From Bdellovibrionales bacterium (lineage in GTDB: Bacteria; Bdellovibrionota; Bdellovibrionia; Bdellovibrionales; JAUICD01), in NCBI GenBank assembly GCA_965262715.1, contig OZ253553.1:32001-96000 (forward strand): DNA of 64,000 bases, read 5' to 3'. Numbering within the stretch: the stretch's first letter is position 1; each line of letters starts with the position of its first letter. Position numbers and translations under genes: made by a program. Under the pieces are notes generated by a model. That model had not been told where the DNA came from. It saw nothing but the letters and a program-made list of their open reading frames with translations, and ran no database searches. Positions 7,605 through 60,406 of the stretch are shown piece by piece.

Positions 7605-8340
7605 ACTAACTTATTATTATAACTTTTCTACTTGAAAACAACAAAAACTATACCTTATAAAGCTTGCTCCTGACTCGAAGTTTTTCCCTGAGTAAGAACA
7701 CTTCCTCGATCACTGCCATATCTGTAGTATATCTATGGCAATGACAAACATAACGATCTCCACAAAGTTCGAGCCTTGACGCTGATGCCACTGCTTCACT
7801 GTTCCGATGAAAAATTATCCTCTATCGCCTGTTATTGCACTACAGATTGTCATATTGAATCAGTAAGAAATATTATATCCTACTAAATACCAAAATTCAA
7901 TTTTTCTTAAGATATTATGATAAAAATTCTTAAAGAAGCAAAAGCAGATATTGATTTTTACTCTAACAAGGCAAAAGCTTATAAAAAACTTCTAGAATCT
8001 GCAATAAAGACTTTGCTATATTTCAAAGAAAGAACTAAAGAAAAACTAAAAACAAGTCCTGGCTTCATCGTTTTACACATACTTCATTTAATAATTTTAA
8101 TAGTTTATGTGTTTCAGGTGTCACTACATTTGCTTGTTATTTGAGAGAGCTTTGGAAGTGTATGTTAAGTTAGTTTTTGTCTTCTCCTATAAGTTTTGTT
8201 TGAGAAAATTTGATATTAAGAGCTTCATAAATATGTCTTTGAAGGTTTGTGACATTTGAAGGTAGAATAAATTTTCTTCCTGTTATCTTATCCAAATCAT
8301 GAGTGGAGATATCTAGTATTTCAGTTACTCTACTAATTTC

Positions 8341-8485
8341 ACTCAAAATAAACCAGCCTCTGGCTGTTTTTGGGCAATCAGCGTGATGGTTAACACCATC
8401 AGCAAAATGCTGATTGCCTCAAAAATTTGTTTATTTTGAGTAGATAGATACTCTTCTTTTTTTACACAATATTAAGGAAAATTTA
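8341..8485 (-). repeat. Solo diverged copy of the structured repeat core (reverse orientation)
   Basis: Nested inverted repeats ACTCAAAATAAAC/GTTTATTTTGAGT, GGCAATCAGC/GCTGATTGCC and TGATGGT/ACCATCA. Confidence 0.8.
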
Positions 8486-25318: not shown

Positions 25319-25405
25319 CTATCAAGTTATTGATTTTATTGAGTTATTCGAAGTTTCTATCTTTTTTCGATATGGCATTAAGGTCATGAAAAAGTCCAGG
25401 ACCGT

Positions 25406-26011
25406 TGTAAATTGATACAATATGTGCTTCTATGTGCCTTTCTTAAAAATAACTCCTTATATTTCCATTTTAGTGAGTTTTAAAGATTTCCTTAACATGA
25501 TGTAAGAGAATGAAGGGAGTCTCCTTACTAAAGAATAAACATGCTTTTGAGGTAGTCAGCTTTTTATTGAAGGTGTGAACCTTCAAGCTGATTAGATACA
25601 TTTAAAGAGTCTATTATCTATAAATTAAACACTGTAATCTTTAAAAATCTCAGTGAGACAAGCCTTAACGCTTGTCTATTCCAAAAGTGGTCAGAGACCA
25701 GTTTATTTTTAGTGAAACAATTGCAAATTGATACAATATGTGCTTCTATATGCCTTTCTTAAAAAAAACTTCTTATATTTCCATTTTAGTGAGTTTTAAA
25801 GATTTCCTTAACATGATGTAAGAGAATGAAGGGAGTCTCCTTACTAAAGAATAAACATGCTTTTGAGGTAGTCAGCTTTTTATTGAAGGTGTGAACCTTC
25901 AAGCTGATTAGATACATTTAAAGAGTCTATCATCTATAAATTAAACACTGTAATCTTTAAAAATCTCAGTGAGACAAGCCTTAACGCTTGTCTATTCCAA
26001 AAGTGGTCAGA
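25406..26011 (+). repeat. Structured tandem array A: two units, both the 316-bp form (second truncated)
   Basis: Unit starts at 25406 and 25722. Confidence 0.92.
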
Positions 26012-26276
26012 GTTAGGAGATGGATTGTTTTTTAGAAAAACAAGGAAAAATCTTTGGAGCAATGATTTTGATGTTTTAAGCCATTTCTGGAAGTCCTCGA
26101 TTGATCGCTTTGGTAGCGATCAATCTGCGGAAGATCTCGTCTTTGGCTTAAAACATCAACTCTTAATTCCTATGATAAAGATTATAGGTGATTTGTAAGG
26201 AGAAGAGACGGTAAGAGGAAGATTTCCTTAACATGATGTAAGAGAATGAAGGGAGTCTCCTTACTAAAAAATAAAC

Positions 26277-33100: not shown

Positions 33101-33360
33101 ATTAGGAAATAATCTTCTATCGAGATGCTTTCATCTTCTGATGGTAAATAAGCAATAATATAACCTTTATCATTAGATACCGTTTGTTCAGAAAACAGGT
33201 TAGGAGCTTGACTTATATTTGAACCGCAGTTTTGAAAAGCTAATAACAATAAAAGTGAAGCCAATAGAAGTAGATAAAAAGCATTATTAAAACTTAACAA
33301 AAAATGCTTTTTTATGTTTTGTTTTTTTATAACCCTAAAGAATTTCATTATTTTTTTCAT
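30112..33360 (-). CDS. Cys-rich repeat lipoprotein, copy 2 (13 repeats)
   Basis: First ~510 aa identical to copy 1; distinct C-terminal repeats ending ..SAICFKRK. Confidence 0.88.
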   Translation of the reverse strand: MKKIMKFFRVIKKQNIKKHFLLSFNNAFYLLLLASLLLLLAFQNCGSNISQAPNLFSEQTVSNDKGYIIAYLPSEDESISIEDYFLIDSDVKLKVMNSHSDSENFKWKITRSFETVTDGEETTTEPEYQYQFKKPGSYDIFATSYKNSDLLTVASKKLVIGEECSLTDVLEIFLESGSLTVGQTATFELKNATDFSNIIWKVTLPSSTEETNEDDSESIELDFTDESTGSVTIEVSAEDPDNSDCLTYRKQVLQVSSNSKPHFNPITIKHNDEEIAVMLESNNIYKYLRPEGGTWTLHTNIQNANQCEFQIDSGSEDVLNCSDGVIDITSTEVCVKSTIAIQASTSSSTTIDSQTSVDDIVEQFYYNYCPSDGSYCYFSGPLPGPLSYQTCDNSILGQAVTRNPSSIVNGECNNSVKNGCIQGTLNDIDDSETHYQWQCLGTNDGTDATGCCSMAIDTAAPINGVCGDDTIRNDCTAGTPDDGAIADTSTHYTWHCVGSNGGATASCTKAIPVNGVCNNSQQNGCSSGTANDAAIADTNTHYTWHCEGSNGGSTATNCQKAKSAPVNGVCNNSQQNGCSSGTANDSAIADTNTHYTWHCVGANGGSTATNCQKAKPAPVNGVCNNSQQNGCSSGTANDSAIADTNTHYTWHCVGANGGSTATNCQKAKPAPVNGVCNNSQQNGCSSGTASDLAIADTNTHYTWHCVGTNGGTTAQNCQKEKPAPVNGVCNNSQRNSCTAGRANDSAIADTNTHYTWHCEGSNGGSTATNCQKAKPINGVCNNSQRNSCSSGRANDAVITDTNTHYTWHCVGANGGTTAQNCQKAKSINGACNNAQRNDCSSGTANDGAIADTNTHYRWHCVGANGGTTAQSCQKLMPIHGVCDNSKQNSCSSGTPNDGVIADTNTHYTWYCIGANGGTTAIDCQKLIPIDAVCDQSQRNGCSAGTAKALPDNTHSTLYLWTCEGLHGGGNQSCTRLKSIIEGVCDNSQRNGCSSGTPDDGAIDDTDTHYTWLCMGAKGGATATDCQKAKPPIHGACSSNARKNPKNSCSSGTANDAPDTDSHYRWHCEGSNGGTSAICFKRK

Positions 33361-33762
33361 TGCTCTATACTTTCATCATCGTTGTATTACGAACCTTCTT
33401 TTATGTGCTATGTACTGCTAGTTGTCCAAAAATTTGAAAGGTAAAATGAATAAAAATATCAAAAATGTAAATCTTTAAAACCAAGCCAAAAGACTGGGTT
33501 TTTAGCCTACCTGGACTGTAACTTACGTACAAAAGTTACAGTATTAAGTTATTGAAATAACTACCGATACAGGTATTGAAGGGCTTTAATTGCTAATAGT
33601 CTTTGGTGTAGAAAACGACCAAAAACATCAATGATTTTAAGGGGACAGGACTGTAACTTATGTACGTAAGTTACACTATCAAGTTATTGATTTTATTGAG
33701 TTATTCGAAGTTTCTATCTTTTTTCGATATGGCATTAAGGTCATGAAAAAGTCCAGGACCGT

Positions 33763-34854
33763 TGTAAATTGATACAATATGTGCTTCTATGTGCCTTTCT
33801 TAAAAAAAACTTCTTATATTTCCATTTTAGTGAGTTTTAAAGATTTCCTTAACATGATGTAAGAGAATGAAGGGAGTCTCCTTACTAAAGAATAAACATG
33901 CTTTTGAGGTAGTCAGCTTTTTATTGAAGGTGTGAACCTTCAAGCTGACTACCCAAAAGTGGTCAGAGACCAGTTTATTTTTAGTGAAACAATTGCAAAT
34001 TGATACAATATGTGCTTCTATGTGCCTTTTTTAAAAATAACTTCTTATATTTCCATTTTAGTGAGTTTTAAAGATTTCCTTAACATGATGTAAGAGAATG
34101 AAGGGAGTCTCCTTACTAAAGAATAAACATGCTTTTGAGGTAGTCAGCTTTTTATTGAAGGTGTGAACCTTCAAGCTGACTACCCAAAAGTGGTCAGAGA
34201 CCAGTTTATTTTTAGTGAAACAATTGCAAATTGATACAATATGTGCTTCTATGTGCCTTTTTTAAAAATAACTCCTTATATTTCCATTTTAGTGAGTTTT
34301 AAAGATTTCCTTAACATGATGTAAGAGAATGAAGGGAGTCTCCTTACTAAAGAATAAACATGCTTTTGAGGTAGTCAGCTTTTTATTGAAGGTGTGAACC
34401 TTCAAGCTGATTAGATACATTTAAAGAGTCTATTATCTATAAATTAAACACTGTAATCTTTAAAAATCTCAGTGAGACAAGCCTTAACGCTTGTCTATTC
34501 CAAAAGTGGTCAGAGACCAGTTTATTTTTAGTGAAACAATTGCAAATTGATACAATATGTGCTTCTATATGCCTTTCTTAAAAATAACTTCTTATATTTC
34601 CATTTTAGTGAGTTTTAAAGATTTCCTTAACATGATGTAAGAGAATGAAGGGAGTCTCCTTACTAAAGAATAAACATGCTTTTGAGGTAGTCAGCTTTTT
34701 ATTGAAGGTGTGAACCTTCAAGCTGATTAGATACATTTAAAGAGTCTATCATCTATAAATTAAACACTGTAATCTTTAAAAATCTCAGTGAGACAAGCCT
34801 TAACGCTTGTCTATTCCAAAAGTGGTCAGAGACCAGTTTATTTTTAGTGAAACA
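33763..34854 (+). repeat. Structured tandem array B: four units (231, 231, 316, ~314 bp)
   Basis: Unit starts at 33763, 33994, 34225, 34541. Confidence 0.92.
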
Positions 34855-35124
34855 GCATTGCCCTATTTGCCAAACGGCGTGAGCCAGTTTGGGGGCAATG
34901 CCAGAAAGTGGCCAGAGTTAGGAGATGGATTGTTTTTTAGAAAAACAAGGAAAAATCTTTGGAGCAATGATTTTGATGTTTTAAGCCATTTCTCGAAGTC
35001 CTCGATTGATCGCTTTGGTAGCGATCAATCTGCGGAAGATCTCGTCTTTGGCTTAAAACATCAACTCTTAATTCCTATGATAAAGATTATAGGTGATTTG
35101 TAAGGAGAAGAGACGGTAAGAGGA

Positions 35125-35272
35125 AGTTTTCCTTAACATTTTGTTAAAAAAGAAGAGATTCTCATTACTAAAAATAAACGGATTTTTTAGGCAATGAGTA
35201 TTTTACGAGGGCGTTAGCCGTCGTGCTCATTGCCCAAAAACAGTCAGAGACTGGTTTATTTTTAGTGAGACA
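35125..35272 (+). repeat. Diverged solo copy of the structured repeat
   Basis: ACTAAAAATAAAC..GGCAATGAGT..ACGAGGGC-GTTA-GCCGTCGT-GCTCATTGCC..CAGTC-AGA-GACTG-GTTTATTTTTAGT. Confidence 0.8.
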
Positions 35273-35376
35273 GCATCGAGATACATTTTAGTGAAATATT
35301 TTACTAGGTTGACCTAGTAAAAATACTAGACATGCCTAGTAAAATGATGCTACAGTTTAAGAAGGTTTTAAGATAA

Positions 35377-41724: not shown

Positions 41725-44700
41725 TTATTTTGGTTTGTTACATCTTACCGTTTCACCGCCATTGAAACCTACACATTGCCATATATAAAATAGGCGACCT
41801 GATGGAAGTTCCTTTGCCGTGCCAACAGAGCAACCATTCCTTCGAGTCTGATCACAAACACCATCGATAGGTTTTGGTTTTTTGCAACGTGTAGCAGTAG
41901 CGCCGCCATTTGCACCTACACAGTGCCATGTATAATGTGTATTTGTATCTGCTATAGCACCGTCGTTTGCAGTGCCGGAAGAGCAGCCATTTCTTCGATT
42001 ATTATTACAAACACCGTTTACTGGTACAGGTTTTGCTCTGGTACAATGTAATGTATTTTTACCTCCATGCAAACCTTCACAAGTCCATAGATAAAGGGTG
42101 GAATGTGTATTATCTGGCAATGCCTTTGCAGTCCCAGCAGAGCAACCATTTCTTTGACTCGTATCACAAACGCCATCGATAGGTATCAGCTTTTGACAAT
42201 CTGTAGCAGTAGCGCCGCCATTTGCACCTACACAGTGCCATGTATAATGTGTATTTGTATCGTCTATAGCACCGTCGTTTGCAGTGCCGGAAGAGCAGCC
42301 ATTTTGTTGACTGTTATCACAAACACCGTTAACAGGTCTTGCCTTTTGACAATTTTGCGCTGTAGTGCCGCCATTTGAACCTTCACAGTGCCATGTATAA
42401 TGTGTATTTGTATCGGCTATTACGGCGTCGTTTGCTCTGCCAGCAGAGCAGCCATTTCGCTGACTGTTATTACAAACACCGTTTACTGGTGCAGGTTTTG
42501 CTTTTTGACAATTTTGTGCTGTAGTGCCGCCGTTTGCACCTACGCAGTGCCATGTATAATGTGTATTTGTATCGGCTATTACGGCGTCGTTTGCTCTGCC
42601 AGCAGAGCAGCCATTTCGCTGACTGTTATTACAAACACCGTTTACTGGTGCAGGTTTTGCTTTTTGACAATTTTGTGCTGTAGTGCCGCCATTTGCACCT
42701 ACGCAGTACCATCTATAATGTGTATTTGTATCTGCTATTGCGCTGTCGTTTGCAGTGCCGGAAGAGCAGCCATTTTGTTGGTTGTTATCACAAGCACCGT
42801 TAATAGATTTTGCCTTTTGACAATTTTGTGCTGTAGTGCCGCCGTTTGCACCTACGCAGTACCATCTATAATGTGTATTTGTATCTGCAATAGCGTTGTC
42901 ATTAGCAGTACCAGCAGAGCAGCCATTTTGTTGGTTGTTATCACAAGCACCGTTAATAGATTTTGCCTTTTGACAATTTTGTGCTGTAGTGCCGCCATTT
43001 GCACCTACGCAGTGCCATGTATAATGTGTATTTGTATCGGCTATTGCGCCATCGTTTGCAGTGCCGGAAGAACAACCATTTTGTTGACTGTTATTACAAA
43101 CGCCGTTGACTGGTGCAGGTTTCTCTTTTTGACAATTTGTAGCAGTAGTGCCGCCATTTGTACCTACACAGTGCCATGTATAATGTGTATTTGTATCTGC
43201 TATAGCTGAGTCATTTGCTGTGCCGGAAGAACAACCATTTTGTTGACTATTATTACAAACGCCATTGACAGGAGGGATAGTTTTTGTACAACTTGCTGTT
43301 GCACCACCATTTGAGCCAACACAATGCCATGTATAATGTGTATTTGTATCGGCTATAGCTGAGTCATTTGCTGTGCCCGAAGAACAACCATTTTGTTGAC
43401 TGTTATTACAAACGCCATTGACAGGAGGGATAGCTTTTGTACAACTTGCTGTTGCACCACCATTTGAGCCAACACAATGCCATGTATAATGAGTACTTGT
43501 ATCAGCTATTGCGCCGTCGTCTGGAGTCCCAGCAGTACAACCATTTCTGATGGTGTCATCGCCGCAAACACCATTTATTGGTGCTGCTGTATCAATGGCC
43601 ATACTGCAGCAACCTGTAGCATCAGTGCCATCGTTGGTACCTAAACACTGCCACTGATAATGAGTTTCTGAATCATCTATGTCATTTAAAGTACCTTGAA
43701 TACAACCATTCTTGACGGAGTTATTACATTCTCCATTTACGATTGAAGATGGATTACGTGTAACAGCTTGGCCTAATATAGAATTTTCACAGGTCTGATA
43801 ACTTAATGGGCCAGGTAAAGGTCCGGAAAAATAACAATAGCTGCCTTCTGATGGACAGTAATTATAATAAAACTGTTCAACTATATCATCTACCGAAGTT
43901 TGACTATCTATAGTGGTAGATGCTTGTATTGCTATAGTACTTTTTACACAGACTTCAGTTGAAGTGATGTCTATTACACCATCACTGCAATTTAGTACCT
44001 GCTCACTGCCACTATCAATTTGAAGTTCACATTGATTAGCATTTTGAATATTTGTATGTAATGTCCAAGTTCCACCTTCAGGTCTTAAATACTTATAAAT
44101 GTTATTACTTTCTAACATCACAGCAATTTCTTCATCATTATGTTTAATAGTTATTGGATTAAAATGAGGTTTAGAATTAGAGCTCACTTGCAAAACTTGT
44201 TTTCGATAGGTGAGGCAATCAGAATTGTCAGGATCTTCTGCAGACACCTCAATAGTAACAGAACCAGTAGATTCATCGGTAAAGTCTAATTCAATACTTT
44301 CACTATCATCTTCGTTTGTCTCCTCAGTTGAAGAAGGTAATGTGACTTTCCATATAATGTTCGAAAAATCTGTAGCATTCTTTAATTCAAAAGTGGCAGT
44401 CTGTCCAACAGTCAAAGAACCGCTTTCAAGAAATATCTCTAAGACATCTGTTAATGAACATTCCTCACCAATCACAAGTTTTTTACTGGCCACAGTTAAC
44501 AAATCGGAGTTTTTATAAGATGTAGCAAAAATATCATAACTTCCAGATTTTTTAAATTGATATTGATATTCTGGTTCAGTTGTTGTCTCTTCTCCATCAG
44601 TAACAATTTCAAAGGCTCTAGTGATTTTCCATTTAAAATCTTCAGAATCAGAATGACTATTCATAACCTTTAGTTTCACATCACTATCAATTAGGAAATA

Positions 44701-44949
44701 ATCTTCTATCGAGATGCTTTCATCTTCTGATGGTAAATAAGCAATAATATAACCTTTATCATTAGATACCGTTTGTTCAGAAAACAAGTTAGGAGCTTGA
44801 CTTACATTTGAACCGCAGTTTTGAAAAGCTAATAACAATAAAAGTGAAGCCAATAGAAGTAGATAAAAGGCATTATTAAAACTTAACAAAAAATGCTTTT
44901 TTATGTTTCGTTTTTTTATAACCCTAAAGAATTTCATTATTCTTGTCAT
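41725..44949 (-). CDS. Cys-rich repeat lipoprotein, copy 3 (13 repeats)
   Basis: Same N-terminal half with a few substitutions; unique end ..TAKELPSGRLFYIWQC..RCNKPK. Confidence 0.88.
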   Translation of the reverse strand: MTRIMKFFRVIKKRNIKKHFLLSFNNAFYLLLLASLLLLLAFQNCGSNVSQAPNLFSEQTVSNDKGYIIAYLPSEDESISIEDYFLIDSDVKLKVMNSHSDSEDFKWKITRAFEIVTDGEETTTEPEYQYQFKKSGSYDIFATSYKNSDLLTVASKKLVIGEECSLTDVLEIFLESGSLTVGQTATFELKNATDFSNIIWKVTLPSSTEETNEDDSESIELDFTDESTGSVTIEVSAEDPDNSDCLTYRKQVLQVSSNSKPHFNPITIKHNDEEIAVMLESNNIYKYLRPEGGTWTLHTNIQNANQCELQIDSGSEQVLNCSDGVIDITSTEVCVKSTIAIQASTTIDSQTSVDDIVEQFYYNYCPSEGSYCYFSGPLPGPLSYQTCENSILGQAVTRNPSSIVNGECNNSVKNGCIQGTLNDIDDSETHYQWQCLGTNDGTDATGCCSMAIDTAAPINGVCGDDTIRNGCTAGTPDDGAIADTSTHYTWHCVGSNGGATASCTKAIPPVNGVCNNSQQNGCSSGTANDSAIADTNTHYTWHCVGSNGGATASCTKTIPPVNGVCNNSQQNGCSSGTANDSAIADTNTHYTWHCVGTNGGTTATNCQKEKPAPVNGVCNNSQQNGCSSGTANDGAIADTNTHYTWHCVGANGGTTAQNCQKAKSINGACDNNQQNGCSAGTANDNAIADTNTHYRWYCVGANGGTTAQNCQKAKSINGACDNNQQNGCSSGTANDSAIADTNTHYRWYCVGANGGTTAQNCQKAKPAPVNGVCNNSQRNGCSAGRANDAVIADTNTHYTWHCVGANGGTTAQNCQKAKPAPVNGVCNNSQRNGCSAGRANDAVIADTNTHYTWHCEGSNGGTTAQNCQKARPVNGVCDNSQQNGCSSGTANDGAIDDTNTHYTWHCVGANGGATATDCQKLIPIDGVCDTSQRNGCSAGTAKALPDNTHSTLYLWTCEGLHGGKNTLHCTRAKPVPVNGVCNNNRRNGCSSGTANDGAIADTNTHYTWHCVGANGGATATRCKKPKPIDGVCDQTRRNGCSVGTAKELPSGRLFYIWQCVGFNGGETVRCNKPK

Positions 44950-45351
44950 TGCTCTATACTTTCATCATCGTTGTATTACGAACCTTCTTTTATGTGCTAT
45001 GTGGTGCTAGTTGTCTAAAAACTTGAAAGGTAAAATGAATAAAAATATCAAAAATGTAAATCTTTAAAACCAAGCCAAAAGACTGGGTTTTTAGCCTGCC
45101 TAGACTGTAACTTACGTACATAAGTTACAGTATTAAGTTATTGAAATAACTACCGATACAGGTATTGAAGGGCTTTAATTGCTAATAGTCTTTGGTGTAG
45201 AAAACGACCAAAAACATCAATGATTTTAAGGGGACAGGACTGTAACTTATGTACGTAAGTTACACTATCAAGTTATTGATTTCATTGAGTTATTCGAAGT
45301 TTCTATCTTTTTTCGATATGGCATTAAGGTCATGAAAAAGTCCAGGACCGT

Positions 45352-45930
45352 TGCAAATTGATACAATATGTGCTTCTATGTGCCTTTTTTAAAAATAACT
45401 CCTTATATTTCCATTTTAGTGAGTTTTAAAGATTTCCTTAACATGATGTAAGAGAATGAAGGGAGTCTCCTTACTAAAGAATAAACATGCTTTTGAGGTA
45501 GTCAGTTTTTTATTGAAGGTGTGAACCTTCAAGCTGACTACCCAAAAGTGGTCAGAGACCAGTTTATTTTTAGTGAAACAATTGCAAATTGATACAATAT
45601 GTGCTTCTATGTGCCTTTCTTAAAAAAAACTTCTTATATTTCCATTTTAGTGAGTTTTAAAGATTTCCTTAACATGATGTAAGAGAATGAAGGGAGTCTC
45701 CTTACTAAAAATAAACAAGTTTTTGAGGCAATCAGCATTTTGCTGACAGGGATACATCCCGTAGTGTTAACTGTCACGCTGATTGCCCAAAAATAGCCAG
45801 AGGCTAGTTCATTTTTAGTGAAACAATTGCAAATTGATACAATATGTGCTTCTATATGCCTTTTTTGAAAATAACTCCTTATATTTCCATTTTAGTAAGA
45901 AAAAACACAAGAAAAAGATTTCCCTATTAC
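45352..45930 (+). repeat. Structured tandem array C: 231-bp unit, 245-bp variant unit, partial unit
   Basis: Unit starts at 45352, 45583, 45828. Confidence 0.9.
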
Positions 45931-47193: not shown

Positions 47194-48520
47194 TGTAACT
47201 TCAAATCGCAAGTGCAACACTTTTGCGGTTATAGATATTTTTAAAAGTTATATCATTTTAAGATTAATATTCCAACAAAGTTTTAATTATAGTGAAAGAT
47301 TACAGTAAATTATTTTATTTGAAGAGATATACTTTGATGTTTATAGTAAAGGCAAGTAGTCCTCGAGCTAAAGCTCTGCGGAAAAACTTGCCTTTACTAT
47401 AAACATCAATTTTTACTTACAAAAAGCTGTTATATAGGATAAGTAATTTTGAATTGATAATGATTTCAACAAATCATCTTCTGTCTATGAAACTCATTGG
47501 GAGTTAGAAAACCTAAACTCTTTCGAGGGCGGTGATTTAAAAGAAACTCAACCTTTTTTACATCCTTAGAGGTGATTTCTCTAAAGTCTGTCTTCTTTGG
47601 AAAATACTGACGGATTAAACCATTCGTGTTCTCATTTAAACCCCTCTGATATGAACTGTAAGGATGTGCAAAATAAACTTTACATCCGGTATATTCACTG
47701 ATCTTCTCATGACACGAAAACTCTTTACCATTATCCAAAGTCATTGTATGAACAACCTCTCTTTTAAGAGTTTTAGAAATAGCATGAAATACTGCCTCAG
47801 AACTCTTAGATTCTATTTTGACAATCCTCGTCTTCTTAGAACATCTATCTACCAGTGTGACTAAAGCTCCTTTATGATGTCTACCTATCATTAAATCACC
47901 TTCCCAGTCTCCTATGCGAATCCTCTTATCTACTATCTTAGGTCTTTTATCAATACTCACTCTATTCTGTATCTGACCCCTTTTATCAAACCTACTTGTA
48001 CCATATCGCTTCTTGCGTTTCTTCTGACATCTTAAAAATTTGTAGAGATCACCTCCTGATTTCTTATCTCGCAGAATATGTTGATAAATACTCTCATGAC
48101 TTATAGAAAAACCTTTTGTTTTAAGAAAACCGGATATTTGTTCCGGACTCCAACGTTCACAAAGAAACCTCTCAAGCTTATTAATGACTTTTTGTGTTAT
48201 CTTTATATGTCTATGAGAGTCTTGAAGACGATCGACTGCTTTTTCATGGGCTTGTTGAGCACGATAACCTCGCAAACCTTTGTTACGACTCAGCTCCCTA
48301 TATATCGTGCTTTTATCTCGACCTAGCTGCGTAGCAATTGAACTTATTGATTTTCCACTTTGCAAAAGTGCTAAAATCTGGTATCTGTCACTTTGGGTTA
48401 GATGAGTGTATTTACTCATGGAATACTCCTCTCGTTATGTAAAGGTATTGATTAGAGTATTCCTCTAACCCCCTTTAAACAACTAGGCAAGGAGTGTTGC
48501 ACTTACGACTTGAATCCACC
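47194..48520 (-). mobile_element. IS30-family insertion sequence, complete, diverged isoform of 11094-12432
   Basis: IRs TGTAACTTCAAATCGCAAGTGCAAC / GTTGCACTTACGACTTGAATCCACC; 3-bp target duplication TGC at 47191-47193 and 48521-48523. Confidence 0.93.
47466..48419 (-). CDS. IS30 family transposase
   Basis: Near-identical protein to 11193..12146. Confidence 0.96.
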   Translation of the reverse strand: MSKYTHLTQSDRYQILALLQSGKSISSIATQLGRDKSTIYRELSRNKGLRGYRAQQAHEKAVDRLQDSHRHIKITQKVINKLERFLCERWSPEQISGFLKTKGFSISHESIYQHILRDKKSGGDLYKFLRCQKKRKKRYGTSRFDKRGQIQNRVSIDKRPKIVDKRIRIGDWEGDLMIGRHHKGALVTLVDRCSKKTRIVKIESKSSEAVFHAISKTLKREVVHTMTLDNGKEFSCHEKISEYTGCKVYFAHPYSSYQRGLNENTNGLIRQYFPKKTDFREITSKDVKKVEFLLNHRPRKSLGFLTPNEFHRQKMIC

Positions 48521-51498: not shown

Positions 51499-54108
51499 TT
51501 ACTGGTCTGGTATCGCTTTTTGACAATCTGTAGCAGTAGTGCCGCCTCTTCTACCTTCACAATGCCATCTATAGTGAGTACTTGTATCAGCTATAGCTCT
51601 GTCATTAGAAATTCCAGTAGTACAGCCATTTCTTTGGCTGTTATTACAAACTCCGGTGATAGGTTTTAGTCTCAAACAATTTGCTGTTCTACCTCCATGC
51701 AAACCTTCACAATGCCATCTATGATAGGCTGTATCTGAAAGTGCTTTTGCAGTGCCCGAAGAGCAACCATTCCTTTGACTCGTATCACAAACGCCATGGA
51801 TAGGTTTCCGTATCTGACAATTTGTTACAGTACTGCCACCATGCAGCCCTACACAATGCCATGTATAATGAGTATTTGTATCTGCTATTACGTCGTCGTT
51901 TGCTGTGCCCGAAGAGCAACCATTCCTTTGATTTTCATCACAAACACCATCGATAGGAGGAGGTATCAGTTTTTGACAATCTGTAGCCGTAGTGCCGCCA
52001 TTTAAACCTACACAGTGCCATGTATAATGTGTATTTGTATCTGCTATTACGGCATCGTTTGCAGTACCAGCAGTACAACCATTTTGTTGACTGTTATCAC
52101 AAACACCGTTAACAGGTTTTGCTTTTTGACAATTCGTAGCTGTAGTGCCGCCATTTGTACCTTCACAGTGCCATGTATAATGAGTACTTGTATCTGCTAT
52201 CGCTGCATCATTTGCTCTGCCAGCAGTACAGTTATTTCTTTGGCTGTTATTACAAACTCCGGTGATAGGTTTTAGTCTCAAACAATTTGCTGTTCTACCT
52301 CCATGCAAACCTTCACAATGCCATCTATGATAGGCTGTATCTGAAAGTGCTTTTGCAGTGCCCGAAGAGCAACCATTCCTTTGACTCGTATCACAAACGC
52401 CATGGATAGGTTTCCGTATCTGACAATTTGTTACAGTACTGCCACCATGCAGCCCTACACAATGCCATGTATAATGAGTATTTGTATCTGCTATTACGTC
52501 GTCGTTTGCTGTGCCCGAAGAGCAACCATTCCTTTGATTTTCATCACAAACACCATCGATAGGAGGAGGTATCAGTTTTTGACAATCTGTAGCCGTAGTG
52601 CCGCCATTTAAACCTACACAGTGCCATGTATAATGAGTACTTGTATCAGCTATTGCGCCGTCGTCTGGAGTCCCAGCAGTACAACCATTTTTGATGGTGT
52701 CATCGCCGCAAACACCATTTATTGGTGCTGCTGTATCAATGGCCATACTGCAGCAACCTGTAGCATCAGTGCCATCGTTGGTACCTAAACACTGCCACTG
52801 ATAATGAGTTTCTGAATCATCTATTAAAGTACCTTGAATACAACTATTCTTAACGGAGTTATTACATTCTCCATTTACGATTGAAGATGGATTGCGTGTA
52901 ACACTCTGGCTTAATATAGAATTGTCACAGGTCTGATAACTTAATGGACCAGGTAAAGGTCCGGAAAAATAACAATAGCTGCCTTCTGATGGACAGTAAT
53001 TATAATAAAACTGTTCAATTATATCATCTGCATCATCTACCGAAGTTTGACTATCTATAGTGGTAGAAGAAGAGGTTGAAGCTTGTATTGCTATAGTACT
53101 TTTTACACATGATTCACTTGAAGTGATATCTATTACACCATCACTGCAATTTAGTACATCCTCACTGCCACTATCAATTTGAAGTTCACATTGATTCGCA
53201 TTTTGAATATTTGTATGTAATGTCCAAGTTCCACCTTCAGGTCTTAAATATTTATAAATGTTATTACTTTCTAACATCACAGCAATTTCTTCATCATTAT
53301 GTTTAATAGTTATTGGATTAAAATGAGGTTTAGAATTAGAGCTCACTTGCAAAACTTGTTTTCGATAGGTGAGGCAATCAGAATTGTCAGGATCTTCTGC
53401 AGACACCTCAATAGTAACAGAACCAGCAGATTCATTGGTAAAGTCTAATTCAATACTTTCACTATCATCTTCGTTTGTCTCCTCAGTTGAAGAAGGTAAT
53501 GTGACCTTCCATAAGATGTTCGAAAAATCTATAGCATTCTTTAATTCAAAAGTGGCAGTCTGTCCAACAGTCAAAGAACCGCTTTCAAGAAAGATCTCTA
53601 AGACATCTGTTAATGAGCATTCCTCACCAATCACAAGTTTTTTACTGGCCACAGTTAACAAATCGGAGTTTTTATAAGATGTAGCAAAAATATCATAACT
53701 TCCAGGTTTTTTAAATTGATATTGATATTCTGGTTCAGTTGTTGTCTCTTCTCCATCAGTAACAGTTTCAAAGGATCTAGTGATTTTCCATTTAAAATTT
53801 TCAGAATCAGAATGACTATTCATAACCTTTAGTTTCACATCACTATCAATTAGGAAATAATCTTCTATCGAGATGCTTTCATCTTCTGATGGTAAATAAG
53901 CAATAATATAACCTTTATCATTAGATACCGTTTGTTCAGAAAACAAGTTAGGAGCTTGACTTACATTTGAACCGCAGTTTTGAAAAGCTAATAACAATAA
54001 AAGTGAAGCCAATAGAAGTAGATAAAAGGCATTATTAAAACTTAACAAAAAATGCTTTTTTATGTTTCGTTTTTTTATAACCCTAAAGAATTTCATTATT
54101 CTTGTCAT
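51499..54108 (-). CDS. Cys-rich repeat lipoprotein, copy 4 (9 repeats plus a frameshifted tenth)
   Basis: Same N-terminal half; internal 606-bp-period duplication; ends KAIPDQ* where PVNGVCDESQ continues out of frame. Confidence 0.86.
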   Translation of the reverse strand: MTRIMKFFRVIKKRNIKKHFLLSFNNAFYLLLLASLLLLLAFQNCGSNVSQAPNLFSEQTVSNDKGYIIAYLPSEDESISIEDYFLIDSDVKLKVMNSHSDSENFKWKITRSFETVTDGEETTTEPEYQYQFKKPGSYDIFATSYKNSDLLTVASKKLVIGEECSLTDVLEIFLESGSLTVGQTATFELKNAIDFSNILWKVTLPSSTEETNEDDSESIELDFTNESAGSVTIEVSAEDPDNSDCLTYRKQVLQVSSNSKPHFNPITIKHNDEEIAVMLESNNIYKYLRPEGGTWTLHTNIQNANQCELQIDSGSEDVLNCSDGVIDITSSESCVKSTIAIQASTSSSTTIDSQTSVDDADDIIEQFYYNYCPSEGSYCYFSGPLPGPLSYQTCDNSILSQSVTRNPSSIVNGECNNSVKNSCIQGTLIDDSETHYQWQCLGTNDGTDATGCCSMAIDTAAPINGVCGDDTIKNGCTAGTPDDGAIADTSTHYTWHCVGLNGGTTATDCQKLIPPPIDGVCDENQRNGCSSGTANDDVIADTNTHYTWHCVGLHGGSTVTNCQIRKPIHGVCDTSQRNGCSSGTAKALSDTAYHRWHCEGLHGGRTANCLRLKPITGVCNNSQRNNCTAGRANDAAIADTSTHYTWHCEGTNGGTTATNCQKAKPVNGVCDNSQQNGCTAGTANDAVIADTNTHYTWHCVGLNGGTTATDCQKLIPPPIDGVCDENQRNGCSSGTANDDVIADTNTHYTWHCVGLHGGSTVTNCQIRKPIHGVCDTSQRNGCSSGTAKALSDTAYHRWHCEGLHGGRTANCLRLKPITGVCNNSQRNGCTTGISNDRAIADTSTHYRWHCEGRRGGTTATDCQKAIPDQ

Positions 54109-54510
54109 TGCTCTATACTTTCATCATTGTTGTATTACGAACCTTCTTTTATGTGCTATGTGCTGCTAGTTGTCCAAAAATTTGAAAGGTAAAATAAGTA
54201 AAAATATCAAAAATGTAAATCTTTAAAACCAAGCCAAAAGACTTGGTTTTTAGCCTACCTGGACTGTAACTTACGTACAAAAGTTACAGTATTAAGTTAT
54301 TGAAATAACTACCGATACAGGTATTGAAGAGCTTTAATTGCTAATAGTCTTTGGTGTGGAAAATGACCAAAAACATCAATGATTTTAAGGGGTCAGGACT
54401 GTAACTTATGTACGTAAGTTACACTATCAAGTTATTGATTTCATTGAGTTATTCGGAATTTCTATCTTTTCTCGATATGGCATTAAGGTCATGAAAAAGT
54501 CCAGGACCGT

Positions 54511-56565
54511 TGCAAATTGATACAATATATGCCTCTATATGCCTTTTTTGAAAATAACTCCTTATATTTCCATTTTAGTGAGTTTTAAAGATTTCCTTAA
54601 CATGATGTAAGAGAATGAAGGGAGTCTCCTTACTAAAGAATAAACATGCTTTTGAGGTAGTCAGTTTTTTATTGAAGGTGTGAACCTTCAAGCTGACTAC
54701 CCAAAAGTGGTCAGAGACCAGTTTATTTTTAGTGAAACAATTGCAAATTGATACAATATATGCCTCTATATGCCTTTTTTGAAAATAACTCCTTATATTT
54801 CCATTTTAGTGAGTTTTAAAGATTTCCTTAACATGATGTAAGAGAATGAAGGGAGTCTCCTTACTAAAGAATAAACATGCTTTTGAGGTAGTCAGTTTTT
54901 TATTGAAGGTGTGAACCTTCAAGCTGACTACCCAAAAGTGGTCAGAGACCAGTTTATTTTTAGTGAAACAATTGCAAATTGATACAATATATGCCTCTAT
55001 ATGCCTTTTTTGAAAATAACTCCTTATATTTCCATTTTAGTGAGTTTTAAAGATTTCCTTAACATGATGTAAGAGAATGAAGGGAGTCTCCTTACTAAAG
55101 AATAAACATGCTTTTGAGGTAGTCAGTTTTTTATTGAAGGTGTGAACCTTCAAGCTGACTACCCAAAAGTGGTCAGAGACCAGTTTATTTTTAGTGAAAC
55201 AATTGCAAATTGATACAATATATGCCTCTATATGCCTTTTTTGAAAATAACTCCTTATATTTCCATTTTAGTGAGTTTTAAAGATTTCCTTAACATGATG
55301 TAAGAGAATGAAGGGAGTCTCCTTACTAAAGAATAAACATGCTTTTGAGGTAGTCAGCTTTTTATTGAAGGTGTGAACCTTCAAGCTGACTACCCAAAAG
55401 TGGTCAGAGACCAGTTTATTTTTAGTGAAACAATTGCAAATTGATACAATATGTGCTTCTATATGCCTTTTTTGAAAATAACTCCTTATATTTCCATTTT
55501 AGTGAGTTTTAAAGATTTCCTTAACATGATGTAAGAGAATGAAGGGAGTCTCCTTACTAAAGAATAAACATGCTTTTGAGGTAGTCAGCTTTTTATTGAA
55601 GGTGTGAACCTTCAAGCTGACTACCCAAAAGTGGTCAGAGACCAGTTTATTTTTAGTGAAACAATTGCAAATTGATACAATATGTGCTTCTATGTGCCTT
55701 TCTTAAAAATAACTCCTTATATTTCCATTTTAGTGAGTTTTAAAGATTTCCTTAACATGATGTAAGAGAATGAAGGGAGTCTCCTTACTAAAGAATAAAC
55801 ATGCTTTTGAGGTAGTCAGTTTTTTATTGAAGGTGTGAACCTTCAAGCTGACTACCCAAAAGTGGTCAGAGACCAGTTTATTTTTAGTGAAACAATTGCA
55901 AATTGATACAATATGTGCTTCTATGTGCCTTTCTTAAAAATAACTCCTTATATTTCCATTTTAGTGAGTTTTAAAGATTTCCTTAACATGATGTAAGAGA
56001 ATGAAGGGAGTCTCCTTACTAAAGAATAAACATGCTTTTGAGGTAGTCAGCTTTTTATTGAAGGTGTGAACCTTCAAGCTGATTAGATACATTTAAAGAG
56101 TCTATCATCTATAAATTAAACACTGTAATCTTTAAAAATCTCAGTGAGACAAGCCTTAACGCTTGTCTATTCCAAAAGTGGTCAGAGACCAGTTTATTTT
56201 TAGTGAAACAATTGCAAATTGATACAATATGTGCTTCTATATGCCTTTTTTGAAAATAACTCCTTATATTTCCATTTTAGTGAGTTTTAAAGATTTCCTT
56301 AACATGATGTAAGAGAATGAAGGGAGTCTCCTTACTAAAAATAAACAAGTTTTTGAGGCAATCAGCATTTTGCTGACAGGGATACATCCCGTAGTGTTAA
56401 CTGTCACGCTGATTGCCCAAAAATAGCCAGAGGCTAGTTCATTTTTAGTGAAACAATTGCAAATTGATACAATATATGCTTCTATGTGCCTTTCTTGAAA
56501 ATAACTCCTTATATTTTCTTTTTAGTAAGAAAAAACACAAGAAAAAAATTTCCTTAACATTTGCG
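54511..56565 (+). repeat. Structured tandem array D: six 231-bp units, one 316-bp unit, one 245-bp unit and a partial unit
   Basis: Unit starts at 54511, 54742, 54973, 55204, 55435, 55666, 55897, 56213, 56458. Confidence 0.95.
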
Positions 56566-56845
56566 TTCAATTCTTCCATTTGAAAACTGTAACTAAAGCT
56601 TATGGGTTTAGATAACTTGAGATTTGCCAAATACCCAAATATTGTTTTCTTTAACTTTTAACTCTAAACATGAAGGTTGTTCAGGCTGCGCTTAAATGTT
56701 CAAAAAAAACATACAAACCATGTTCTAACCTAAGTTCCTCTTTTACATAGTGATGAAATATACGAGGAGTGATAAGAATCGTGCAATAAGAAAATATCAT
56801 ACATGGTTATGTGGAGGCTTTGAAGTTTCCTTCTATTCCACTGGA

Positions 56846-57672
56846 TTAGTTTTTCTGAGAAGTGTTTAAGGTTTTCTTCATTTCATCTATACCCATAATT
56901 CTGTCCAAAATGGTAAAGCGATGACGATAGTTTGTTGCAGCAGCCTCTGAATTGAACAAGTATGGGTCATTATAAAATCCTCTATACGTTGTTAAATAAA
57001 TAGCCACTGCTTGAGCAAAGTCTTGCTCAATATCAAAATCCCTATCATCTTCAGAAAGCCTGATCTCACCATAAGTGAAGGTACCATCTCTTACAATAGC
57101 ATCATACCACTCTTGACTAGAATAACCAGATGCAGGGTGTCTTGCAATTAAATGTCCCAATTCATGTCGCATTGTTTGAGTAGCTTTAGCTCTATATCTT
57201 GCATCTTGGAAATCATAATAAAAATCGACTTGAATTGCGTTATAAATAAGATAAACAATACCACTGTCATCATCATTGATAACTCTTGGTGACAGTTGAG
57301 GAAACATTTGTTGTAGCCAGCCACATTCACTACAATCAGATATAAAAGAATTCGAAGAGGCTAAAAACTCACCATGTTGTCTGGGAGAATCAGTTTCCCT
57401 TTTTATTTTAATAAAATGCACTTTGCTTAACTATCTCTCCGGCATTTTACCCAAGATAGGTCTAACTTCTTGAAGTATTTCTGAAGAAGAATGTTCCCTA
57501 CTTTCTTCAACAGCAAGTATCAAAGACTTCTGCTGTCCATTTGCTAAAAAGGAAACATCATAAATATGATAACAAGTATTATTGAAAGGTAGTTCTTCCG
57601 GTATATCAATATCACAGGCATACTGCATTCTTATATCTTGTAAAAAGTATCCAAGTGTCAAATCTGCTGTCC
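56846..57672 (-). pseudogene. HExxH zinc-metallopeptidase-like protein, 5'-truncated with in-frame TAG at 57431
   Basis: MRHELGHLIA and EQDFAQAV motifs; 56846..57421 is in frame with the tail of 57431..58207. Confidence 0.6.
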
Positions 57673-58207
57673 CCAATTTTTCTGCAAATATAAATTCTGC
57701 AGGATAAACAGAAAGAGATATCTCTTTAATTTCAGGAAGTAAAAACAAGTCCTTTGATGTGATAAACTTCACATCAACATCATCTCCAGCGCATACATCA
57801 ATTTTTAAACTCTCTGATTGGCTACGATCAAATAAGCTCCAATTGATTTCAAAACGATCTCCTCCATAAGGAGTTTCTCGCTCCATTTTTGATTTACTTA
57901 AGCTTTTAAAATGAAATCCATCTTTCAAGTCTATTTTCATGGCTTCTAGTAAGACATCTTGAACTTGTACAATCTCCATGTCCCTTACCAAAAAATCAAT
58001 ATCAACTGTAAAACGAGGGATTTCAAGATGTTGATACAACCTTAAAAGTAAACTACCTCCTTTCCAAATATAATGACGACTCTCTCTAAGTTGACAAAGC
58101 CTCGCTAAAAACCTTTCTTGACTTAAAAGAGTTTGCATTTGAGGCATTCTAAGACCAAGCTCAGTAGCTTTCTTTTCAAGAGCCTCTCTTACTCTGCAGA
58201 TGTCCAT
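57673..58207 (-). pseudogene. abiEii: AbiEii toxin N-terminal part, fused to unrelated sequence after FAEKL
   Basis: ERFLARL, WKGGSLL, RFTVDIDF, YPAEFIFAEKL; the expected R.KD motif is missing. Confidence 0.75.
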
Positions 58208-58211
58208 ATCA

Positions 58212-58790
58212 TTATAAATAAGCCTCTATGAGCTTATCAAAATGTCCTTTCACTCGAAAATCAACAGCTAACTTTTTCATCTTTGAAATATTAATAGGAA
58301 TACCTTTCTTTTGAGCAGTGAACATAACTTTTAAAACCATAGAAATTGATTTTTGTGTGCGTAATAAGTCTATTAAAGTACGTTCAATTGAAGTTATTGG
58401 AATACCATTTACTTTTCTTACTGCTTTTTTATAAAGGGTATCTTTAACTCTATAAAACCTCACATCTTTAATTTTTCTTTTGGGAACATTAGAAAGAGGT
58501 ACTATCAAATGAATATTTCTGGGAGCCTCATCTGTCAGGTCATAAAACTTTAATGCAGATTCAAGCCCAAGAATAGCTTGTGGGATCATTTTGAGTTTTT
58601 CTTTGATTAAAGACTCAAAATCAAAGCTTAAATGTTCAGGAAAAGCATACAAACCATGCCCTAATCTAACTAAAACCTTCTTTTTTTTAACATAGTAATG
58701 AAGCATACGAGGACTTACACCTTTTTTCTGAGCCTGCTTAGTTCGAAAAGGACCTTGTCCTTTAAGTTTAAATAATCTTTGATTTCCCAT
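58212..58790 (-). CDS. abiEi: AbiEi family antitoxin
   Basis: LVRLGHGLY, LESALKFYDLTDEAP, ITSIERTLIDL. Confidence 0.85.
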   Translation of the reverse strand: MGNQRLFKLKGQGPFRTKQAQKKGVSPRMLHYYVKKKKVLVRLGHGLYAFPEHLSFDFESLIKEKLKMIPQAILGLESALKFYDLTDEAPRNIHLIVPLSNVPKRKIKDVRFYRVKDTLYKKAVRKVNGIPITSIERTLIDLLRTQKSISMVLKVMFTAQKKGIPINISKMKKLAVDFRVKGHFDKLIEAYL

Positions 58791-59667
58791 ATGTAAATTA
58801 TAGGTTTTATTTATATGAATTACAACCTATTTATTACATTTTTTCTTTTCAACGATGTACTATATTTCTTAAATCATCAGAAGGCTAACTTTGTGCCAGT
58901 GAGCTTTCTGGCAAGTTCTTCTGATGATGAAAATCCCTGTTTAATCCTTTTTGTAGCCATTTTCTCAATATTAAATAAAATCTCTTTGGCGTGGGTAACC
59001 TGATCCAAATAGCAATGATATATTTATAATGATTTTAATGAGTGTTTCCATTATTCCCTCCTGTTTTTTAAAATTCGTGTATAAATATTCTTTATGATTT
59101 TACGTTCTCTTAAAGCCCTTAAAGTAGAGCTTTTTGACCATGAAAATTGAGTTAGCTTCTCAATATTACGAGTGGAAAGCTTGAGATCAATATAAAGTTT
59201 CTGTAGAATTTTAAAGCTTTTTTCTGGGGTATTAAAAAAATGTGTAATAAATAAAGATACATAGCTGGAGTCATAAGTGGAGATGTCCAATACTTCAGCT
59301 ACTCCACCAATCCCAGTTTTAGACGAACCTGGGCCTACCAAACGATCATTGTGATGTAAGGCATAAGTTCCAAATCCAACAGCTTTTCTTATATTTGAAA
59401 ACCGATCTTATTGAGATTTATTTTGATGAAACGATGCCTCAAGGGGTCTTGCAAGTTTACGAAAGGGCAATACGACTCCCGGTTGATGAGGAGTTTCTTT
59501 AAAACAAAATATCTACTAATCTGTTAACTATTCCTTCTTATAAAATCTATTACCGAAGTCCTTTGTAGCACACACTCTTCTACTAGTTTTGACTAGAAGT
59601 CATCTCAAAAATGCTCCTAGAGAGAAAAGTTTTAAAAAAGATACCAGTTTTGCATTTAATTTATTTC

Positions 59668-60341
59668 ACTCAAAATAAATCAACCTCTGGTTGTTTTTGG
59701 GCAGCCAGCTTGACGGTTAACACCGTCAATAAAATGCTGACTGCCTCAAAAATCCATTTATTTTAAGTAAGGAGAATGTCTTCATTCTTTTACATCATGT
59801 TAAAGAAAATTTCCTTCATTCTGTTTTACTCAAAATGAATAGAAGACAAGCCTCTCGAGGCTAGCCTTTTTGAGGATTGCCCATGAAATAAATCTAGGTA
59901 CTGATCCGATGGCAAGAATAAAACTTCCCTAACATTGTGTTAAGAAACAAGAAGATCCTCCTACTAAAATGCATTAGCCTTTCTAGGCAGTAAGCTATTT
60001 GCCAACGGCCATAAGAGCCGTCGGGCTTACTGCCAGAAAGTGACCAGAGGCTCGCCTCGAGAGGTCAGATGCATTTTAGTGAAAAAAAAGCTGATTCATT
60101 TTGAGGAAGACAGCCCTTTTATATAAGAAATTAGAGGTAATAGGTACAAACGTTTATAGACTTTTACTGAAACAGCACGATTCCCTTAACATGATGTTAA
60201 ATAATGAGGAGTATCTGGTTTACTAAAATGCAGCAGGCTTTCTAGGCAGTAAGCTATTTGCCGACGGCCATAAGAGCCGTCGGGCTTACTGCCAGAAAAT
60301 GACCAGAGGCTCGCCTCGAGAGGCGAGATGCATTTTAGTGA
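59668..60341. repeat. Three diverged copies of the structured repeat: ~59668-59820 (-), ~59925-60082 (+), ~60181-60341 (+)
   Basis: C(C/T)TAACAT..TGTTAA, ACTAAAATGCA/TGCATTTTAGT, GGCAGTAAGC/GCTTACTGCC and C(A/G)ACGGC..GCCGTCG stems. Confidence 0.8.
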
Positions 60342-60406
60342 AAATAGTTAGATAAAGTTATGAACTTCTGGCAATACTTATTAAACTTTTATTTTTGAGA
60401 CCGCTT

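Follow-up and report, generated by a model that had tools for sequence, protein, structure and literature searches.

The repetitive extragenic palindromic (REP) sequences are simple palindromes of about 20-40 nt that often occur as inverted doublets, and the REP-associated tyrosine transposase (RAYT) is a Y1 HUH transposase that is typically flanked by the repeats. In Correia elements and other miniature inverted-repeat transposable elements (MITEs), the ends are inverted repeats and a TA is duplicated. Here, we describe a structured repeat from a Bdellovibrionales bacterium (contig OZ253553.1), studied in a 64-kb stretch of the genome, hereafter the window, in which the region 54510-56529 is a head-to-tail array of mostly 231-bp units (array D). 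We argue that array D is probably a tandem amplification of one ~155-nt element together with a 76-nt neighbour, and that the ~155-nt repeat is probably a non-autonomous mobile element read through the fold of one strand. Its general kind would likely be an already familiar class, the small selfish mobile elements, of which it would be a genus-restricted, high-copy and fold-dependent member. The + strand of the element is the + (top) strand of array D throughout.

The tandem 231-bp units had been proposed in an initial annotation, and are borne out by Tandem Repeats Finder (TRF), which gives a period of 231, 6.8 copies and 99% matches at window positions 54510-56082, and by blastn of one unit, which carries the array on to 56529, beyond the TRF end. 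The unit is a composite of a 76-nt spacer and the ~155-nt element, and only unit positions ~78-231 recur elsewhere. Copies in the genome that carries the window (G000, 2.94 Mb) were collected by blastn of one unit and then by nhmmer iterated over three rounds. The core of ~155 nt gave 319 blastn high-scoring segment pairs and 518 nhmmer matches, 267 on the + and 251 on the - strand, and the ~311 near-full copies amount to ~1.6% of the genome; the share is higher in a sister genome of the same genus (G001). Nearly all matches (492 of 518) are intergenic, that is, outside open reading frames (ORFs) of at least 90 aa, and 175 intergenic regions are occupied. The core is therefore a genome-wide interspersed repeat rather than a local locus for a multimeric noncoding RNA. 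Two options had been offered for the array, and a REP/MITE-like repeat fits this spread better than a dedicated RNA gene.

Placement is also even with respect to genes and replication. The four orientation classes relative to the flanking genes hold 47, 44, 47 and 56 cases, and the top strand of the element lies on the leading strand in 118 of 231 clusters, so that no replication bias is seen; together these do not fit a cis-regulatory RNA. In the window itself, 28 nhmmer matches (16 near-full copies, 5 copies halved by an 86-nt insert, plus partials) are in keeping with an earlier count of ~22 copies. No long ORF spans the units, as had been stated: the longest in 54511-56565 has 27 aa on the + strand and 47 aa on the - strand.

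The fold of the element is under constraint. One unit folds at -63.3 kcal/mol on the + strand (z -5.36 against 200 shuffles) and at -57.2 kcal/mol on the - strand (z -4.63). For 63 maximally diverse copies, RNAalifold predicts 38 pairs, and compensatory changes are found in 31 of these. Pairing cells reach 93.6% in this set versus 77.2% in shuffles, none of 500 shuffles being as high, and sliding the partners by 1-3 columns leaves pairing at 50.6% or less. Among 238 distinct copies, the column pairs with the highest mutual information are the predicted pairs; columns 80-113, for example, read CG 91, GC 69, AT 40 and TA 16 times. The loop bases are maintained in both species.

That pairing is kept through compensatory change, and more so on the + strand, had been suggested from the window, and is supported by the covariation and by the alifold energies (-41.8 on the + versus -27.8 on the - strand). 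G-T wobbles had been taken to point the same way. Within pairs of the window genome, G-T exceeds A-C by 269 to 153, or 28 pairs versus 8, and here the claim holds; in the sister genome the excess is weaker, at ~105 versus 75 and 15 pairs versus 14. Folding of the + strand is moderately favoured.

From 5' to 3', the element comprises a purine-rich leader, the box TTTCCTTAACAT, ~30 moderately conserved unpaired bases, the stems P1, P2 and P3, and a tail (Table 1). Of the 357 genomic occurrences of the box, 350 lie within elements. P1, the long P2 and the short P3 form a three-way junction. P1 pairs ACTAAAAATAAAC with GTTTATTTTTAGT, its inner pairs vary among copies (AAAC/GTTT, GAAC/GTTC, GGTC/GACC, GCATC/GATGC), and the 3' tail is TTTTTAGTGAAAC (AGTGAAAC in the anatomy of the element). 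Of 235 copies in the window genome, 223 have AGA as the P3 loop. A T-G pair stands at the foot of P1 in 216 of 235 copies there and in 221 of 224 copies of the sister genome, and a GNRA apical loop is seen in 148 of 235 copies of the former and 130 of 224 of the latter.

The stems drawn in the initial annotation were recovered where it had placed them: an outer stem in which ACTAAAGAATAAAC (54632-54645) pairs with GTTTATTTTTAGT (54721-54733), a second stem GGTAGTCAG / CTGACTACC, the hairpin TTGAAGGT-GTGA-ACCTTCAA at 54672-54691, and the side hairpin TGGTC-AGA-GACCA at 54708-54720. A diverged copy put at 56356 is present, with its start at 56357. Two other pairings, a hairpin in the 5' box (TTAAC-ATGAT-GTTAA) and TTTCC/GAGGA, were dropped because their partner columns vary without compensation. 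A conserved small ORF from the ATG of the box was dropped as well, since no more than 105 of 238 copies have the G, and units in the window read ATG ATG TAA. The comparison with Rfam that had been called for gave no family at gathering score anywhere in the window; over 54300-56700 at E up to 5, with self-cleaving ribozymes included, it returned sub-threshold noise only. ARAGORN found no tRNA-like gene.

A covariance model built from the element alignment (R1) was used to search relatives and pattern-matched loci. It finds the element in 3 of 31 relatives and in 3 of 141 genomes of the order: G000, G001 and G004. The sister genome is the denser carrier, with 558 matches, 266 of them near-full, in its first 800 kb, the part covered by the census. 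The nearest copy in the same genome, more than 3 kb away, has a median identity of 0.89 in the window genome and 0.94 in the sister genome, while the best copy across genomes has a median of 0.77 and never exceeds 0.85; for 99% and 100% of copies, respectively, the nearest dispersed neighbour is one of the same genome. This clustering of copies within genomes suggests a recent, lineage-specific spread. G004 is filed under another genus, and its element matches lie on three small contigs, C1, C4 and C11 (L223-L226). These are 88-92% identical and syntenic to the window genome, closer than the gene flanks of the sister genome, which reach only about 75-78% identity. We therefore rejected G004 as a second carrier genus; the three contigs were probably binned with the wrong genome and stem from a third species in the genus of the window. 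In an exact-pattern scan of species-representative genomes, nearly all of the matches listed fall on one Bdellovibrionales metagenome-assembled genome record. Pattern-matched loci elsewhere were single matches only, at least 10 in genome contigs, 5 in viral contigs and 41 in metagenome contigs, and 0 of these 56 loci match R1 at E up to 0.01.

Comparison with the ~90%-identical contigs shows three orthologous sites that differ by presence or absence of the element. The ortholog comparisons place the 3' insertion boundary right after TTTTTAGTG(A/G). At one orthologous site, the window genome has the full three-way junction and its relative a 'mini' body with the same 5' region and tail. Paralogous empty sites were found at e82, e23, e144, e256, e41 and e113, where the element lies inside another repeat family. 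Empty and occupied sites differ by a clean block of ~155-165 nt, at which neither target duplication nor terminal inverted repeats are seen. Orthologous comparison of the window and sister genomes gave no exact boundaries, because the flanks are too diverged. In the sister genome, elements are found nested in, or spliced onto, other elements.

The elements also follow one another. In 78 of 254 unique contexts, the 60 nt upstream of the 5' box contain a 3' motif, as compared with 170 of 5000 (3.4%) background intergenic 70-mers. This indicates that elements often sit directly behind an older tail; the tail-to-head spacing peaks at ~10 nt. The window genome has 21 arrays of at least three same-strand copies, with periods of 158 to 431 bp.

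Other small repeats were met inside or next to elements. An unrelated 148-nt insert occupies the same P2/P3 junction, between GCCC and AAAA, in three different host elements of the sister genome (L082:3841-4142, L082:4904-5207 and L088:10935-11235), which suggests a second small element that targets this junction. At about the same place the window carries the 86-nt insert of its 316-bp units; this insert has 8 copies in the genome, every one inside an element. A second structured repeat of ~190 nt, 'Module B', is found at window positions 34925-35118 and in ~35 other places of the window genome. It folds at -65.3 kcal/mol (z -5.9), has a long outer stem that looks covarying, gives no Rfam match at E up to 1, and stands directly upstream of 26 of the 311 elements.

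How does the element compare with the described systems? It shares with REPs, bacterial interspersed mosaic elements (BIMEs) and REPINs the hundreds of mostly intergenic noncoding copies, a single strand that forms hairpins, and the tandem mosaics. It differs from REPs and REPINs in its length of ~155 nt, its three-way junction, and its unpaired 5' third with the invariant 5' box. It also differs from REPIN-RAYT systems in that the sister genome has no Y1 or RAYT gene and that of the window genome is IS200-like. The palindrome-associated elements of the IS200/IS605 insertion sequences (PATE-like elements) are alike in other respects: terminal inverted repeats and target duplication are lacking, the fold is strand-specific, and the element tends to follow a motif resembling its own end. 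The element has, however, one structured domain instead of two subterminal hairpins, and in contrast to IS200/IS605 the sister genome is without TnpA or TnpB and no replication-strand bias is seen. From MITEs of DDE transposases it is set apart by the same lack of terminal inverted repeats and target duplication, with ends GATTTCC... and ...TTTTTAGTG; no full-length insertion sequence in the window genome has these ends, and no 5' box bounds a larger unit.

In its size (100-200 nt), high copy number and predicted structure, its confinement to a narrow lineage and the modular mosaics that it forms with further small repeats, the element is also like the Rickettsia palindromic elements, enterobacterial repetitive intergenic consensus sequences (ERIC, or intergenic repeat units, IRU), Correia, BOX and the Coxiella QMITE; no sequence relation was seen in a comparison that covered their descriptions and such models as Rfam has. 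Integron attC sites are likewise read as a folded single strand, keep structure while sequence varies, and stand head-to-tail. Unlike them, the element has no conserved R''/R' core (RYYYAAC / GTTRRRY), its inner P1 pairs varying freely, and it is spread in both orientations over many intergenic regions and not gathered in one array. Type III toxin-antitoxin and clustered regularly interspaced short palindromic repeat (CRISPR) arrays differ in that the spacers of array D are 93-100% identical, not variable, and that its neighbours are an AbiE pair and a family-less ORF, other arrays having other neighbours. In the literature searched, on Bdellovibrionota, on intergenic repeats with a three-way junction and on MITE or REP repeats of Bdellovibrio and Bacteriovorax, we found no such repeat described for this lineage. 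One preprint (10.64898/2026.09.22.753630), as far as its available part goes, treats other multicopy structured RNAs (TwoAYGGAY), not this element.

Several observations weigh against a mobile element, and most concern the enzyme that would move it. Profile searches of five genomes (G000-G004) found no mobilising enzyme. Y1_Tnp (PF01797) has 0 matches in the sister genome, the densest carrier, and 1 in the window genome, an IS200-type gene of the ordinary sort that lacks any element within 1.5 kb of it; the HUH/RAYT partner that had been proposed as a check is thus missing from the genome with most copies. RVT_1 has 0 matches in the sister genome and 3 in the window genome, the IS110 family is absent from both, and the matches to PF07282 are Cas12-like proteins of a Cas12a locus. 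Serine recombinases (Resolvase) show no correlation, being present in all five genomes whether or not these carry the element. No larger or autonomous element bearing the 5' box was found in the window genome. Beyond the enzymes, the strand asymmetry is weak in the sister genome, random replication orientation argues against IS200/IS605-style transposition at the fork, and the presence/absence differences could partly be deletions. Several copies inside a four-helix-bundle gene (below) share a leader and are duplications, not separate insertions. No movement was seen directly: public contigs break at elements, and no strain-level empty site was found. Because the searches for an enzyme and for an autonomous relative were negative, the element is an orphan.

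Other results of these searches are given for completeness. Y2_Tnp gave no match in the five genomes, where the control genes were equally silent. Outside the elements there are 7 boxes: six are solo, with unrelated sequence 0-3 nt past the box, and the seventh belongs to a miniature element. An abundant 1.96-kb insertion sequence is of the IS4 family, and its ends are unrelated to the element; it encodes a 551-aa DDE transposase, has the ends CCTGAGTTTGACAGTTG, and is found in at least 21 places of the window genome (e.g. C1:2534891-2536846), in copies that are 82-95% identical. The type V CRISPR-Cas locus (L123, G000:C1:2589400-2602000) holds a 1407-aa Cas12a, Cas4 and a second ORF of 1334 aa, of which the only match is to a Cas12f1-like TNB zinc ribbon.

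One gene stands out near the elements. Of 20 ORFs that have an element on either side, three code for a 97-aa four-helix-bundle protein (PF05635 / TIGR02436, Avd/S23p family). The gene is multicopy, with 35 matches in the window genome, 26 in the sister genome and 24 in G004; G002 and G003 gave none. In many copies, an element in the orientation of the gene interrupts it at codon ~62-68, and does so at the identical nucleotide position in both species; in the window genome, a shared 14-nt leader indicates that several of these copies come from one event. In the sister genome, the gene is part of a cassette of ~480 nt (>95% identity) bounded by (GGGATCC)n repeats, and an element lies 64-85 nt downstream of the cassette gene in 7 of 8 cases. 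Since no R1 element adjoins the copies of the gene that belong to G004 itself, the association is suggestive only.

We favour the view that the repeat is a non-autonomous mobile element and that array D arose from it by amplification. The folded top strand and the 5' box would be recognised by a protein that copies or moves the element or, with lower probability, by the nucleic acid itself. Insertion would tend to occur immediately after a 3' tail already in place, leaving direct repeats side by side, and unequal recombination or slippage between these could amplify the element with the intervening DNA into arrays of many periods. The period would then be set by the DNA between neighbouring copies, and 231 bp, element plus 76-nt spacer, would be one case. 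A bolder form of this proposal holds that the fold-read element is spreading now and is moved by a new enzyme class or by its own nucleic-acid chemistry, with the four-helix-bundle gene as one lead. We regard this as distinctly doubtful; if true, it would suggest that DNA can move in a widespread way that has so far gone unrecognised.

It could also be argued that the copies are small RNA genes, or cis-acting RNA modules of the host such as two-way terminators or signals for processing or stability. Transcription would be from the + strand, and arrays would yield a multimer that is cut into units. One strand does fold better, the apical GNRA loop and the T-G at the P1 foot are frequent in both genomes, loop bases are invariant across the two species, and P3 with its T-run scores as terminator-like, on both strands. 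However, a terminator there would stop the RNA within the 3' strand of P1, whereas P1 covaries. No conserved sigma-70-like promoter is found on the + strand of the unit, and candidate -10 positions are less conserved than the neighbouring columns. The orientation is random relative to the flanking genes, and copies cluster by genome, come and go at orthologous sites and are nested in one another. We also know of no precedent for 300 to roughly 800 copies of an RNA gene in a genome of 2.6-2.9 Mb. We consider this reading unlikely.

The complementarity itself may have another source. In E. coli, quasi-palindromes are known to be repaired by hairpin-templated template switching, by which paired changes could arise in single mutational steps in an ordinary palindromic repeat, with no selection on a folded intermediate. 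The small strand asymmetry of the sister genome (15 pairs versus 14) would agree with such an origin, but the G-T excess over A-C in the window genome (269:153, 28 pairs versus 8) is seen despite copies in both orientations. Moreover, unpaired loop, bulge and tail bases are invariant in two species with differing stems, and the three-way geometry is kept while stem sequences are replaced, so we hold this origin to be improbable.

Four minus-strand ORFs of the window (22661-25003, 30112-33360, 41725-44949 and 51499-54108) consist of related tandem repeats of 153-159 bp; none has a convincing Pfam family, and each has an array upstream that faces its start. It is conceivable that the arrays are the working upstream part of these four repeat-rich surface-protein genes, as a copy-variable promoter or insulator, and that dispersed copies are incidental. 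The array is on the start side of all four genes, copy number differs among the four loci, and every spacer has a - strand sigma-70-like match directed toward the gene (TTCAAA, 17 nt, TATATT). Such promoter-like matches are, however, at the level of shuffled sequence (6 versus a mean of 5.9), and the 21 arrays of the element, with other spacers and periods, adjoin unrelated genes. The right ends of arrays C and D are built alike, with a diverged 245-bp unit and then a partial spacer, which fits a segmental duplication of gene and array. We judge an upstream function of this kind very improbable; under the mobile-element reading, arrays C and D would have arisen by duplication of a gene-plus-array segment followed by local expansion. 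Of the 23 genomic copies of the 76-nt spacer, 18 lie in the four arrays of the window.

Least probable of all is that the element moves through RNA, retro-copied or self-processing in the way of retrozymes or short interspersed nuclear elements with the arrays as templates of multimeric transcripts, a proposal for which the one-strand fold, the GNRA loop, the conserved U-G at the P1 foot, the random replication orientation, the six solo 5' boxes that end 0-3 nt after AACAT and the A-runs that end some copies can be cited, and against which stand the lack of a reverse transcriptase in the sister genome, site of the most recent burst, the lack of any Rfam self-cleaving ribozyme match at E up to 5, and a single 3-nt joining strand at the junction, unlike the hammerhead core.

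Table 1. Positions of the element, its parts, the arrays and related features (window coordinates unless a contig is given)
Feature	Position	Strand	Basis or remark
~155-nt element, first unit	54585..54741	+	nhmmer match to model positions 4-159; R1 match
5' box TTTCCTTAACAT, almost invariant, unpaired	54592..54603	+	column counts; kept in the consensus of the sister genome
P1 5' strand, pairs with 54721-54733	54632..54645	+	
P2 long hairpin with bulged A, U-rich internal loop and apical GTGA loop	54649..54707	+	apical hairpin 54672-54691
P3 5-bp hairpin, near-invariant AGA loop	54708..54720	+	
P1 3' strand and conserved tail (GTTTATTTTTAGTGAAACAA)	54721..54740	+	
76-nt spacer, first unit	54510..54585	+	ends in solo element 3' motif CCATTTTAGTGAG, ~10 nt before the next 5' box
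Array D, head-to-tail	54510..56529	+	six 231-bp units, 316-bp unit, 245-bp unit and partial; TRF, blastn, sequence
Array D, six 231-bp units	54510-55895	+	
Array D, 316-bp unit	55896-56211	+	
86-nt insert in P2 3' strand, yields the 316-bp unit	56086..56171	+	
Array D, 245-bp diverged unit	56212-56456	+	
Array D, 73-nt partial spacer/unit	56457-56529	+	
Solo 5' box at the right edge of array D	56549..56560	+	unrelated sequence immediately after
Array A, ~two 316-bp units of array D type	25405..26012	+	TRF, blastn, nhmmer
Array B, 231-bp and 316-bp units	33762..34856	+	TRF, blastn, nhmmer
Array C, 231-bp unit, 245-bp diverged unit and partial unit	45351..45899	+	blastn, nhmmer
Single diverged element copy	35124..35274	+	nhmmer
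Single element copy	8337..8484	-	nhmmer
Single element copy	59662..59812	-	nhmmer
Two element copies (59921-60086, 60176-60344)	59921..60344	+	nhmmer
869-aa repeat-rich ORF, start facing array D	51499..54108	-	context, outside the element
Four-helix-bundle gene, example	G000:C1:2622800-2623090		34 further matches; L273-L284

The surroundings of array D hold other features. A palindrome (CTGTAACTTACGTAC-AAAAGTTACAG type) occurs twice between the array and the start of the 869-aa ORF, at 54262-54290 and 54399-54425, and both copies are possible operator or terminator sites. An AbiEii/AbiEi toxin-antitoxin pair stands just right of the array (57431-58790), and two transposases, one IS30-like (47466-48419) and one of the Mutator family (27019-28260), are also present in the window.

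What is new here is the anatomy of the arrays, the lineage bursts, the mapping of boundaries, the negative inventory of enzymes in the densest carrier, the absence of replication bias and the association with the four-helix-bundle gene. For the organism, the arrays of the window appear to mark island segments that were duplicated recently, ahead of the four related surface-protein genes, and are likely recombination hot spots. We would like to point out that structured repeats of this type are likely to be mistaken for candidate RNAs by gene finders and RNA-motif screens, and that R1 and the present description can avert such false leads. The point of interest is the mode of movement, as the usual enzymes for movement without terminal inverted repeats or target duplication are missing where the element is youngest. 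The genus therefore offers a clean setting in which to seek the mobilising activity of orphan folded repeats.

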